NCBI GenBank assembly: GCA_963801355.1 | Contig: CAWDEM010000004.1 | Location: 1,376,001 to 1,440,000 of the forward strand | Direction: 5' to 3' | DNA from: Ignavibacteriota bacterium | GTDB lineage: Bacteria; Bacteroidota; Ignavibacteria; UBA10030; UBA6906 | Length of the DNA stretch: 64,000 bases | Shown here: one piece after another, positions 55,410 to 56,974 of the stretch | Layout of the letters: every line of letters begins with the position of its first letter | Position numbering within the stretch: the first letter of the stretch is position 1 | Translations under genes and position numbers: made by a program | Notes under the pieces: generated by a model | Told to the model about the DNA's origin: nothing | Seen by the model: only the letters and a program-made list of their open reading frames with translations | Databases searched by the model: none

Positions 55410-55483
55410 GCTGGCGTAGCTCAGTTGGTTAGAGCACCAGATTGTGGATCTGGGGGTCGATGGTTCGAGTCCATCCGCCAGTA
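55410..55483 (+). tRNA. tRNA-His: tRNA-His(GUG), non-canonical: no G-1, G1:U72, A73; CCA not encoded
   Basis: Acceptor gctggcg/cgccagt+a, D-stem gctc/gagc, anticodon arm ccaga-ttGTGga-tctgg, T-arm gatgg-ttcgagt-ccatc. Confidence 0.95.
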
Positions 55484-55519
55484 CTCCTCCCTCCCATGTC
55501 ATACTTGTAATGATTCCCA

Positions 55520-56974
55520 ATGACGACTGAACAACGAATAGTTGAGCCCCGATTGCTCCGGGGCTTCCGTGACTACCTTCCGGCCCAGATGAATGCCCGG
55601 CAGAAAATCATTGCCACCATCCGGCAGGTCTATGAACGGTATGGATTCCTCCCTCTCGACACTCCGGCGCAGGAATACCGGGTCACGCTCATGGGCTACG
55701 GGGAAGAGAATACCAAGCAGATCTTCACTTTCAAAAATCCGGAGGAAGAAGATGTCGCCCTCCGGTTCGATCTGACAGTGCCGCTGGCCCGTGTCGTCGC
55801 GCAGTACCCCGATCTTCCGCTGCCGTTCCGGCGATACCAGGTCGCCCCGGTGTGGCGGGCCGATAAGCCCGACCCGGGCAGGTTCCGCGAATTCCTCCAG
55901 TTTGACCTGGATTCGGTGGGTGTCACCTCCAACGCGGCAGACGTGGAGATCCTCTGCGGAATGTACGACACCCTCCGCGCCCTGGGCATCGAAAATTTCC
56001 GCGTGAGATTCAGCGACCGGAAAGTCCTCAACAGCCTTCTGGACTATGCCGGAATTCCCCGCGACATGGCACATGCCGTATTCCGTGTGCTGGACAAACT
56101 GGAAAAGATCGGGCTGGAGAACATCGCTGGAGAGCTGACCGCCGGCCGGATCGATGTCTCGGGGGACAAGATTCCGGGGCTGGGCCTTGCTGCCGGGTCC
56201 GCCGATCGCATCAAGGAATTTCTCGCGCTTCCTCAGGGAAACCGGAAGGATGTGCTGGCCGGCATGGCTGCATTGTTCACCGCCGTGCCCTCTGCGGCAG
56301 AGGCCGTGGCGGAGCTGGAATTCATCTGTTCCGCGCTTGATGTCCTGGACATCCCCGATGACCGCGTCGCGCTGGATCTCAGCATTGCGCGTGGACTCGA
56401 CTATTACACCGGACCGGTTTTTGAAGCGATTCTTACGGATGCGCCGGAATTTGGATCGGTCTTCGGCGGAGGTCGCTATGATGGGCTTGTGGAACGCTTC
56501 CTCGGACGGAAGATTCCGGCCGTCGGCGCTTCGATCGGCGTGGACCGCCTGTTCGCCGCGATGCTAAAGCTCGGCCTCGTGCAGATGGTGTCTTCCACCG
56601 CACAGGTCCTGGTGACGGTGATGGAACCGGCCCGGATGAACGACTACATGAAACTGACACGGACACTGCGGGCCGGGGGAATTAACACCGAGCTCTACCT
56701 CGGCGATGAAACCACCCTTGGCAAACAGCTGCAGTATGCCAATCGCCAGAAGATCCCTGTCGCCATCATTATAGGGAGCGATGAGTTTGCCAATAATGAG
56801 GTCACGGTGAAGGATCTTATCCTCGGGGCGACGGTGCAGGACCGGAAGAAAACGGCGAAAGGGAAGGAGCGTGACGTATGGCTCGCCCTCTCCCGCAAGG
56901 CGCAGGTGAGGGTTCCTGCTCCGGATGTCATCGCCTGTGTGCGTGAAACCCTTTCACGTCCCCAACCAGCCTGA
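55520..56974 (+). CDS. hisS: Histidyl-tRNA synthetase, alphaproteobacterial-like type
   Basis: RGFRDYLP, LRFDLTVPLAR, WRADKPDPGRFREF, RGLDYYTG, GGGRYDGLV, IGVDRL and an anticodon-binding domain. Confidence 0.95.
   Translation: MTTEQRIVEPRLLRGFRDYLPAQMNARQKIIATIRQVYERYGFLPLDTPAQEYRVTLMGYGEENTKQIFTFKNPEEEDVALRFDLTVPLARVVAQYPDLPLPFRRYQVAPVWRADKPDPGRFREFLQFDLDSVGVTSNAADVEILCGMYDTLRALGIENFRVRFSDRKVLNSLLDYAGIPRDMAHAVFRVLDKLEKIGLENIAGELTAGRIDVSGDKIPGLGLAAGSADRIKEFLALPQGNRKDVLAGMAALFTAVPSAAEAVAELEFICSALDVLDIPDDRVALDLSIARGLDYYTGPVFEAILTDAPEFGSVFGGGRYDGLVERFLGRKIPAVGASIGVDRLFAAMLKLGLVQMVSSTAQVLVTVMEPARMNDYMKLTRTLRAGGINTELYLGDETTLGKQLQYANRQKIPVAIIIGSDEFANNEVTVKDLILGATVQDRKKTAKGKERDVWLALSRKAQVRVPAPDVIACVRETLSRPQPA

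Follow-up and report, generated by a model that had tools for sequence, protein, structure and literature searches.

A tRNA-His without G-1 and a glutamine-less histidyl-tRNA synthetase as the probable housekeeping pair of a Bacteroidota-like bacterium

The stretch of DNA analysed in our study (64,000 nucleotides, referred to as the window) contains a tRNA-His gene which is directly followed by hisS, encoding a histidine--tRNA ligase (HisRS), and by hutH, encoding a histidine ammonia-lyase. The extra guanosine at position -1 (G-1) of tRNA-His is among the most conserved identity marks of tRNAs. We consider it probable (roughly 0.7) that the tRNA and the enzyme of the window represent the housekeeping pair for histidine charging of this organism and that they would act independently of G-1, as members of a clan which also comprises the alphaproteobacterial system. 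By clan we mean the set of long HisRS enzymes without the motif-2 glutamine, including those of Alphaproteobacteria. The data obtained here concern gene content, covariation, phylogeny and synteny. In the window genome (G000; 4.8 Mb in 8 contigs, scored 100% complete) ARAGORN detected this tRNA-His as the only one among 47 tRNAs, and this hisS is the only gene above the TIGR00442 cut-off, with a 363-aa hisZ-like paralogue below it. A search for Thg1 (PF04446) gave no match in the window genome, with a positive Methanosarcina control, and Thg1 was also not found in three further clan genomes (G042, G043 and G045). Since the genome has no other tRNA-His and no other HisRS and no Thg1 was found, the pair is regarded as housekeeping. 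The first-pass annotation had called the pair portable; an extra or recently mobile pair is contradicted by its being the sole pair of a 100%-complete genome and by its inheritance across the family. The features of the region are as follows.

55339..55367, plus strand: promoter-like site TTGCAA-17 nt-TATCAT in only weak agreement with the consensus, located 43 nt before the tRNA
55410..55483, plus strand: tRNA-His (GUG), ARAGORN; Rfam tRNA model 72.2 bits, E 5.9e-16, end-to-end alignment
55484..55519, plus strand: spacer of 36 nt between A73 and the ATG of hisS
55520..56974, plus strand: hisS, histidine--tRNA ligase of 484 aa, long Gln-less type; TIGR00442 376.6 bits, cut-off 286.75
55856..55888, plus strand: motif-2 loop RADKPDPGRFR, residues 113-123, with Asp118 at the Gln position
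56144..56188, plus strand: insertion-domain segment GRIDVSGDKIPGLGL, residues 209-223
56831..56971, plus strand: C-terminal extension past the anticodon-binding domain, approximately residues 438-484, with W452 and Q462
57000..58520, plus strand: hutH, histidine ammonia-lyase, 25 nt after the hisS stop; TIGR01225 670.5 bits, cut-off 539.15

The tRNA-His with the anticodon GTG is the single tRNA that ARAGORN found in the window. Read from the sequence, position -1 (55409) is a T and G-1 is not templated. The acceptor stem GCTGGCG/CGCCAGT results in G1:U72 and C2:G71, and the discriminator base (55483) is A73 and not C73. The D loop has 9 nt including U20a (AGTTGGTTA), the anticodon loop reads TTGTGGA with A38, and the CCA end is unencoded. 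A non-canonical tRNA-His, separated from hisS by 36 nt, had already been described in the first-pass annotation and is confirmed by T at -1, G1:U72, A73 and the start codon at 55520. The published feature set of G-1-less tRNAs consists of A73, G1-U72 and U20a (Yuan et al. 2011, PMC3064791). Because the canonical tRNA-His of sister families has the same 9-nt D loop with U20a, this feature is non-discriminating here.

The HisRS comprises the catalytic core (PF13393, 173.5 bits) and the HGTP anticodon-binding domain (PF03129, 48.7 bits). In ordinary HisRS a glutamine of motif 2 reads the G-1:C73 end, and this residue is a glycine in the alphaproteobacterial (RRCH) clade (PMC3937112). In the T. 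thermophilus HisRS complex the corresponding Gln117 touches nucleotides 71-72 (PMC4357726). In the window enzyme Asp118 replaces the glutamine of G-1-dependent enzymes and is followed by a proline, as in alphaproteobacterial enzymes. Within the insertion-domain segment G209, D212, G220 and L223 are conserved to at least 90% in a 26-row clan alignment (A1), and a KDLILGA...W...RKAQ segment occupies residues 431-462. The motif-2 loop without Gln and these two segments, which had been pointed out from the first inspection of the sequence, are all present in the HisRS. The C-terminal extension is found in clan members, whereas Gln-type relatives align only up to approximately residue 433-437; speculatively, it is a candidate for stronger binding of the anticodon arm. 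Templated G-1, C73, G1:C72 and motif-2 Gln, the marks of canonical G-1:C73 identity, are all absent from the window pair.

The founding papers on the alphaproteobacterial G-1-less system are reportedly those of Ardell & Andersson 2006 and Wang et al. 2007. For Caulobacter it was described that a G-1-less transcript is fully charged and that an added G-1 does not help, while charging decreased 91- to 1000-fold after changes of the anticodon, 91-fold for U72C and 3-fold for A73C (PMC3064791). The Caulobacter pair showed no cross-reaction with the E. coli pair and its orthogonal use has already been published (PMC3064791). The window tRNA shares with the Caulobacter/RRCH tRNA the lack of a templated G-1, A73, G1:U72, C2:G71, the 9-nt D loop with U20a and the anticodon loop UUGUGGA, and identical features were seen in a Caulobacter sp. 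genome checked here. Likewise, both HisRS lack the motif-2 Gln, have a proline next to this position, contain the GRxDxSGD insertion segment and the C-terminal extension, and belong to the same clan (97/100). However, the enzymes are only 38-44% identical, and the window HisRS has Asp instead of Gly and RADKP instead of RNEKP. Besides, the window tRNA lies in a block with hisS and hutH, and its host is a Bacteroidota-like bacterium rich in proteins of the type IX secretion system (T9SS). In all sequence features compared, the window system corresponds to the alphaproteobacterial G-1-less system, with Asp in place of Gly. By analogy, orthogonality of the pair in E. coli is plausible.

With the canonical HisRS and tRNA-His of E. 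coli and T. thermophilus (4RDX, PMC4357726) the window pair has the class II core, the HGTP domain and the anticodon GUG in common. Canonical tRNA-His, in contrast, carries a templated G-1 paired with C73 as well as G1:C72, neither of which is found in the window tRNA, and canonical HisRS has approximately 420-430 aa, the motif-2 Gln and no C-terminal extension; the seven sister families described below have this canonical system. Canonical PDB matches to the window HisRS are weak, with E-values of 1e-31 to 1e-24, and fall into two separate stretches. Among solved structures the best matches are Gln-type "eukaryote-like" HisRS (6nhi, 3net and human HARS; E 5.5e-72 to 1e-61), and enzymes of this kind, including those of the same-phylum families f26, f38 and others, form the nearest outgroup in the tree. 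They keep the Gln (e.g. RADRPQKGRFR), end near residue 433-437 and go with a G-1/C73 tRNA where this was checked (f26 genome G639). A loss of both the need for G-1 and Thg1 is also known from the eukaryotic HisRS of Acanthamoeba castellanii and Trypanosoma brucei (PMC4338351, PMC3561963). Similarly, an identity change is linked to synthetase transfer in bacteria with archaeal TyrRS/TrpRS identity rules, although other amino acids are concerned there and the abstract text contains no linked tRNA-synthetase block (PMC5370408).

The distribution of the pair was investigated in 277 genomes of the order of the window organism, which comprises its own family f1 (67 genomes and G000), f6 (four genomes) and seven further families (205 genomes; families f1-f9 in total). 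The genomes besides G000 are without label or are metagenome-assembled genomes (MAGs) with the label of their submitters, mis-binning is possible, and owing to the kinship among them the family tallies reflect few evolutionary events rather than hundreds. With the window HisRS as query (E<=1e-60), enzymes of the window type (53-94% identity) were detected in 57/67 f1 genomes and G000 and in 4/4 f6 genomes, compared with 0/205 in the other seven families. A strict full-length tRNA-His pattern (non-G at -1, G1, U72, A73), for which a reversed-pattern control gave 0 matches, was found in 46/67 f1 genomes and G000, in 4/4 f6 genomes and again in none of the 205 others. The canonical pattern (G-1, G1, C72, C73) was run on a 111-genome sample of the order and was present in 0/21 f1 and 0/4 f6 genomes compared with 60/85 of the others (f2 9/11, f3 0/3, f4 3/3, f5 11/22, f7 14/22, f8 20/21, f9 3/3). 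Genomes fitting neither pattern, here including all of f3, count as no call and not as contrary. The sister families have a canonical HisRS of 420-426 aa (485-495 bits on TIGR00442) without C-terminal extension and with Gln in the motif-2 loop (FRQERPQAGRLRQF). Since both types co-occur family by family, being found together in f1 and f6 and neither of them in the seven others, the pairing of tRNA and enzyme exceeds chance. Both genes were located in approximately 46 f1 genomes, whose enzyme type was assigned by tblastn identity; the motif itself was read in the approximately 28 loci that were translated. Moreover, G1:U72 and A73 remain constant in f1 and f6 while the acceptor stem shows compensatory exchanges (GCTGGCG, GCCGACG, GCTGATG, GCAGGTG), and all 52 tRNA-His matches of these families have T or C at position -1. 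In the same phylum, 365 of 401 sampled genomes lack this broad HisRS subfamily (E<=1e-60) and 25 have the Gln type.

The host itself is a Bacteroidota-like, T9SS-rich lineage and not an alphaproteobacterium. This follows from three lines of evidence. Among the 120 listed relatives of the window HisRS at 72-94% identity seven are named, namely five as Bacteroidota/Bacteroidetes, one as Sphingobacteriales bacterium CHB3 and one as Acidobacteriota. The T9SS sorting domain has 150 matches in the genome, 149 of them above the cut-off, and 0 in each of 14 control genomes. Finally, genomes of the same phylum encode Gln-type HisRS with a motif-2 string identical to that of PDB chain 6nhi.

Beyond the order, a search of 1.84 billion cluster representatives yielded 20,231 HisRS relatives. 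The nearest of them (approximately 39-55% identity) have 470-545 aa, carry DKP-[G/D/N/E]-PGRFRE without Gln and have the GRxDxSGDxIxGLGL segment as well as a C-terminal extension in common with the window enzyme. When species-representative genomes were scanned with the clan alignment, the best 80 of 600 candidates were evaluated, among which the own family is absent. These 80 include Thermoanaerobaculia (55-56% identity), Vicinamibacteria (54%), Hydrogenedentota (42%), two unlabelled MAGs and approximately fifty Alphaproteobacteria at 36-44% (RNEKPGPGRFRQF), as well as Gln-type enzymes from Pirellulales, Lutibacter, Poribacteria, Bacillota and others which match up to approximately residue 433-437. 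All clan genomes in which a tRNA-His was found have T or C at -1, G1:U72 and A73, without exception. They comprise two genomes of f17 and one of f16 (families of other orders of the same class), seven labelled Acidobacteriota, one of Hydrogenedentota, the unlabelled L077 and L096, a Caulobacter sp. MAG and a Phaeomarinobacter MAG. The seven Acidobacteriota-labelled cases are two Thermoanaerobaculia loci and five more genomes of this phylum, which came from the tRNA-pattern scan with matches in 6/151 sampled genomes. No tRNA-His was recovered from the Vicinamibacteria genome G046. Among the genomes checked, none combined a G-1-less tRNA-His with a Gln-type enzyme or the reverse. Hence, the matching non-canonical features of tRNA and synthetase that the first-pass annotation had seen in the window recur, with no mismatched genome, wherever positions -1, 72 and 73 could be read in the clan.

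The HisRS tree was built from 67 rows and 478 columns with the LG+C20+F+G4 PMSF (posterior mean site frequency) model and an outgroup of 17 rows (15 Gln-type and two shorter Gln-less representatives). The long Gln-less clan is split from the outgroup with a support of 97/100. Within the clan f1 (100/99), f1 with f6 (100/98), the alphaproteobacterial clade (100/98), f17 with the representative P0122 (100/100) and a group containing Acidobacteriota (98/97) were recovered. The alphaproteobacterial clade is nested in a 100/100 group with the unlabelled P0147, P0149, P0168, P0235, L077 and L096, which also holds an f16 genome of the class of the window organism. The initially supposed link to the alphaproteobacterial system stands insofar as the window enzyme falls into one clan with the alphaproteobacterial enzymes and apart from the Gln-type. 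It does not stand as a nearest relationship, and other uncultured lineages are closer. An exclusive sister clade of f1+f6 and Alphaproteobacteria costs 207 log-likelihood units and was rejected in the approximately unbiased (AU) test (p-AU 8e-62), whereas a grouping of f1+f6 with the Acidobacteriota group costs 2.7 units and was not rejected (p-AU 0.44).

Two further members of the tree deserve mention. In f16, one of eight genomes sampled (G475, L175) carries a tRNA-His of the G-1-less kind together with a HisRS open reading frame (ORF) of 518 aa, whose odd motif-2 loop reads RYETKLDPGRFR. In the tree this enzyme belongs to the alphaproteobacteria-proximal subclade and not to that of f1/f6, which points to a separate acquisition in the same class. 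Contig L091, labelled Luminiphilus sp. (Gammaproteobacteria), encodes a HisRS nested among Rhodobacterales enzymes (RNEKPGPGRFRQF); it is probably mis-binned and possibly reflects a recent transfer.

For the charging of histidine we propose the following mechanism. The tRNA-His would be made without an extra 5' G, as none is templated and no Thg1-type enzyme was found. RNase P would cut at +1, and the CCA end would be added post-transcriptionally because it is not encoded in the gene. The HisRS, without the motif-2 Gln and with its clan-specific insertion and C-terminal segments, would read the GUG anticodon, U72 and A73 in place of the G-1:C73 pair. Thus, by analogy with Caulobacter, we infer G-1-independent charging and a mature 5' end at +1. 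tRNA-His, hisS and hutH may form a single transcript, since they are separated by 36 and 25 nt, neither gap was found to contain a terminator-like site and a weak promoter-like site is located upstream of the tRNA. Overall, 3 promoter-like sites were found compared with 0.8 expected in shuffles.

The order of the three genes is conserved beyond the window. In f1 the tRNA-His was located in 48 genomes and hisS was on the same contig in 32. In 28 of these 32 cases the tRNA lies upstream on the same strand, and in four the orientation is opposite; the distance to hisS is <200 nt in 12, <1 kb in 15 and 1.4-47 kb in 13. In all four f6 genomes the tRNA-His is within 173 nt of hisS. Directly after hisS, hutH follows in 27 of 28 f1/f6 loci, the remaining one being cut off within hisS. 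The order tRNA-His, hisS, hutH was also found in 7/7 Acidobacteriota-labelled loci, one of which is cut by the contig end, with identities to the window of 46-56% for HisRS and 40-51% for HutH. The linked tRNA-hisS unit suggested for the window is therefore conserved in f1, f6 and the Acidobacteriota-labelled loci. In L096, near the alphaproteobacterial clade, a tRNA-His lies directly upstream of hisS and no hutH is present within 3 kb. In canonical sister-family genomes, hisS and hutH are on separate contigs in 14/14 cases, and in five fetched loci the tRNA-His gene is beside tRNA-Arg and/or tRNA-Glu, away from hisS. Among the best 80 of 600 candidates, no alphaproteobacterial-labelled locus has a tRNA-His within 3 kb of hisS.

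Several variations of the block were observed. Tandem pairs of G-1-less tRNA-His genes are located upstream of hisS in L075 (2552-2628 and 2802-2878) and L294 (G687), and the copies differ in the anticodon stem. In the MAGs L108 (Hyphomonadaceae) and L147 (Terricaulis) hutH is immediately upstream of hisS, with 38-39% identity to the window HutH; the hisS-hutH linkage therefore recurs in the clan in a different order. The hutH-like gene of f1 exists in two forms with 60-95% and 41-44% identity to the window HutH, as seen by comparing L013, L014, L018, L020-L023, L165 and L167 with the remaining set (L007-L012, L015-L017, L019, L024-L027, L029, L166, L168 and L169). The 41-44% form is placed on a long branch adjoining the HutH of the sister families, and the two forms suggest replacement or fast divergence of the downstream lyase. 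Between same-strand tRNA and hisS genes 1.4-47 kb of other genes were found in G001, G196, G202, G206-G208, G218-G221, G223 and others, so that insertions seem to recur in this spacer. In G202 the gap measures 11 kb and contains a sulfatase, T9SS-sorted/tail proteins, an outer-membrane barrel protein and an ORF with a zeta-toxin domain. An integrative element splitting tRNA and hisS in G202 was rejected, as this gap holds no integrase.

Because the three-gene order is shared by two phyla and absent from the canonical relatives, joint transfer of tRNA and enzyme is favoured. Joint horizontal transfer had been one of the two origins proposed at the outset and, with the same block present in Acidobacteriota-labelled genomes, it is the best reading. 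The ancestor of f1 and f6 would have received tRNA-His and hisS as one block, probably together with hutH; the direction of this transfer is what we infer. The block would have displaced the resident G-1/C73 tRNA and Gln-type enzyme, which are still present in the seven sister families, and would have been inherited vertically since. We lean, if only slightly, towards such an acquisition as one block. A wider idea is tentative and in our opinion rather doubtful: tRNA-His, hisS and hutH might be a transferable identity-swap module which repeatedly displaced the resident G-1 system across phyla, the alphaproteobacterial system being one descendant of it and not a unique in-situ invention. Such a module could displace a resident system outright because it carries both partners of G-1-independent charging. 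Its targets would then include this Bacteroidota-like class (at least twice), Acidobacteriota, Hydrogenedentota and unlabelled lineages.

A number of observations speak against the reading of a G-1-independent pair acquired by joint transfer, or weaken it. The Gln position is occupied by Asp here, compared with Gly in the Caulobacter-type enzymes that have been tested. The argument of a blocked G-1 pocket, based on G72G73 in T. thermophilus and Asp-Asp in Caulobacter (PMC4357726), is weak in our case: the window HisRS has Glu-Glu at this position, but in the canonical sister enzymes Ser-Gly or Ser-Asp is found instead of Gly-Gly, which makes the Gly-Gly pocket criterion of Tian et al. uninformative here. 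The T at -1 could pair with A73, but C at -1 is common in the family, too. No match to the window query was obtained for hisS in ten f1 genomes. In three of them (G024, G005 and G021) the family model detected neither this nor any other type of hisS, a tRNA-His was not recovered either, and therefore the block is probably unassembled there. As to the history, the tRNA core (59 positions) is identical at 51-53/59 to Acidobacteriota-labelled and at 45-51/59 to canonical sister-family tRNAs, a small margin only, by which co-transfer of the tRNA is not proven. In the HutH tree the sequences of f1/f6, Acidobacteriota and the sister families diverge in a three-way polytomy, the HisRS tree has a polytomy at the base of the clan, and in the RpoB tree f1 and f6 join a polytomy at the base of the order, to which f16 and f17 are outgroups. 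Furthermore, the groups for the AU test were defined after inspection of the tree. In the f1 genomes G004 (G004:C3:777333-778786) and G011 (G011:C104:1728-2941) the sole hisS is in two/three overlapping out-of-frame pieces, which are either frameshifts or assembly indel errors.

Another explanation, which we consider unlikely though the strongest of the competitors, is that HisRS alone was transferred and the resident tRNA-His adapted in place by loss of G-1, C72->U and C73->A, with the adjacency to hisS being secondary. Published analyses cited in PMC3064791 favour such in-situ divergence for Alphaproteobacteria, and the missing linkage in the alphaproteobacterial loci is in line with it (no tRNA-His <3 kb from hisS, best 80 of 600). 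The window tRNA core also matches the canonical tRNA of f9 at 51/59 positions, compared with 51-53/59 for the Acidobacteriota-labelled tRNAs, and canonical sister tRNAs likewise have a D loop of 9 nt with U20a. On the other hand, the f1/f6 tRNA differs additionally in the D stem, at position 26, in the anticodon stem and at positions 38 and 44. Moreover, since the block order recurs in two phyla, with the tRNA-His upstream of hisS in the third lineage L096, and the five sister-family tRNA-His genes sit with tRNA-Arg and/or tRNA-Glu away from hisS, this model would need independent relocations.

It is still somewhat less likely that the G-1-less system is ancestral to the order or class and that the seven canonical families regained the G-1/C73 tRNA and the Gln-type enzyme. 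The G-1-less tRNA with a Gln-less enzyme in 2/2 genomes of f17 and in one of f16 would agree with this, as would the RpoB tree, where f1 and f6 lie in a polytomy at the base of the order and f16 and f17 outside it. However, the f16 enzyme is a member of the other, alphaproteobacteria-proximal subclade (100/100), and for this reason more than one acquisition is needed in any case. Regain in the canonical families is also difficult to reconcile with their highly uniform tRNA-His and with the rest of the phylum, where 365/401 genomes lack the enzyme subfamily (E<=1e-60) and 25 have the Gln type.

We regard it as very improbable that the HisRS is still dependent on G-1 and that an unrecognised enzyme adds this nucleotide post-transcriptionally, as in eukaryotes opposite A73. 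A73 is indeed the eukaryotic discriminator opposite which Thg1 adds G-1 according to the literature. Yet PF04446 was not found in G000, G042, G043 and G045, the motif-2 Gln is absent, and the homologous Caulobacter enzyme gains nothing from an added G-1 (PMC3064791). A Lutibacter genome with a tRNA-His lacking a templated G-1 and a Thg1-like gene could be taken as a precedent; it represents a different system because of its C73 and Gln-type enzyme.

The Lutibacter case is of interest in its own right. In this Lutibacter sp. MAG (L080, tRNA at 4404-4480; G041, L154) the tRNA-His is directly downstream of a Gln-type hisS and has C73, G1:C72 and T at -1, and the genome encodes a Thg1-like protein (PF04446, 69.4 bits). 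Its sequence suggests that G-1 is added post-transcriptionally opposite C73.

A recently acquired, mobile extra "orthogonal" unit bordering a genomic island, for which only the synteny break left of the tRNA would speak, is hardly credible and as a recent event refuted by the family survey, given that tRNA-His and hisS are the sole copies, are conserved in 57/67 f1 and 4/4 f6 genomes at 53-94% identity, lie in DNA of ordinary G+C (0.55-0.59) without integrase or transposase at 44-62 kb and are of a subtype not found on viral contigs or plasmids. Among viral contigs 58 HisRS relatives were detected, none of the window subtype, the best being alphaproteobacterial-type (RNEK..GPGRFRQF) or Gln-type. 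All 110 matching plasmid records have <60% identity, and the 15 listed are alphaproteobacterial replicons.

In the literature, loss of G-1 in bacteria has been viewed as having occurred once and as defining a single alphaproteobacterial clade, and it has served as a marker for the placement of SAR11 (PMC3937112; PMC9976931). A 2023 review of tRNA identity names alpha-Proteobacteria only among bacteria (PMC9976931), and Mukai et al. add alphaproteobacterial phages (PMC5389517). Our search of full-text literature gave no G-1-less tRNA-His system in bacteria beyond Alphaproteobacteria and their phages; subscription journals and the founding papers were outside its scope and a prior mention is possible. 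New aspects are thus that the system occurs beyond Alphaproteobacteria and that tRNA, hisS and hutH are linked in a block, whereas the idea of an orthogonal pair has already been published for Caulobacter. The same combination of tRNA and enzyme is the sole system of a Bacteroidota-like family and occurs in several other phyla with perfect covariation, which makes G-1 loss less convincing as a unique synapomorphy. With outgroups and candidate donors now available, it becomes possible to test where the alphaproteobacterial HisRS originated. In addition, movement of tRNA and synthetase together suggests a simple route to replace an essential identity rule, and diverse natural pairs are available for comparison with the published orthogonal pair of Caulobacter.

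The surroundings of the block do not resemble the foreign-looking island that the first-pass annotation had assumed next to it. Upstream neighbours are ordinary metabolic genes, among them a heparinase II/III-like gene, two GFO/IDH/MocA oxidoreductases, a class-III aminotransferase, a Zn-dependent alcohol dehydrogenase, an M20 peptidase and a 2-hydroxyacid dehydrogenase, as well as a GNAT-like ORF. No integrase, transposase or mobile-element family was found by Pfam in the 10 flanking ORFs (44-62 kb), and the regional G+C per kb is 0.49-0.61 compared with 0.57-0.575 for the two main contigs. Neither an integrase or transposase nor a deviant composition thus marks the region as a genomic island; repeats of the tRNA 3' end were not searched for. 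A recent island or mobile cassette was rejected on the basis of composition, the Pfam content of these ORFs and the family-wide surveys. The GNAT-like ORF (54170-55324, plus strand, 384 aa) has a weak match to PF00583 (E 1.4e-4) and none to an NCBIfam family. By tblastn, a counterpart is missing from the hisS loci of all relatives, including those of the same genus, and therefore a synteny break is present at the left (5') flank of the tRNA. Besides the tRNA-His, the 47 tRNAs of the window genome include a tRNA-Sec (anticodon TCA) and two tRNA-Ser(CGA) genes.

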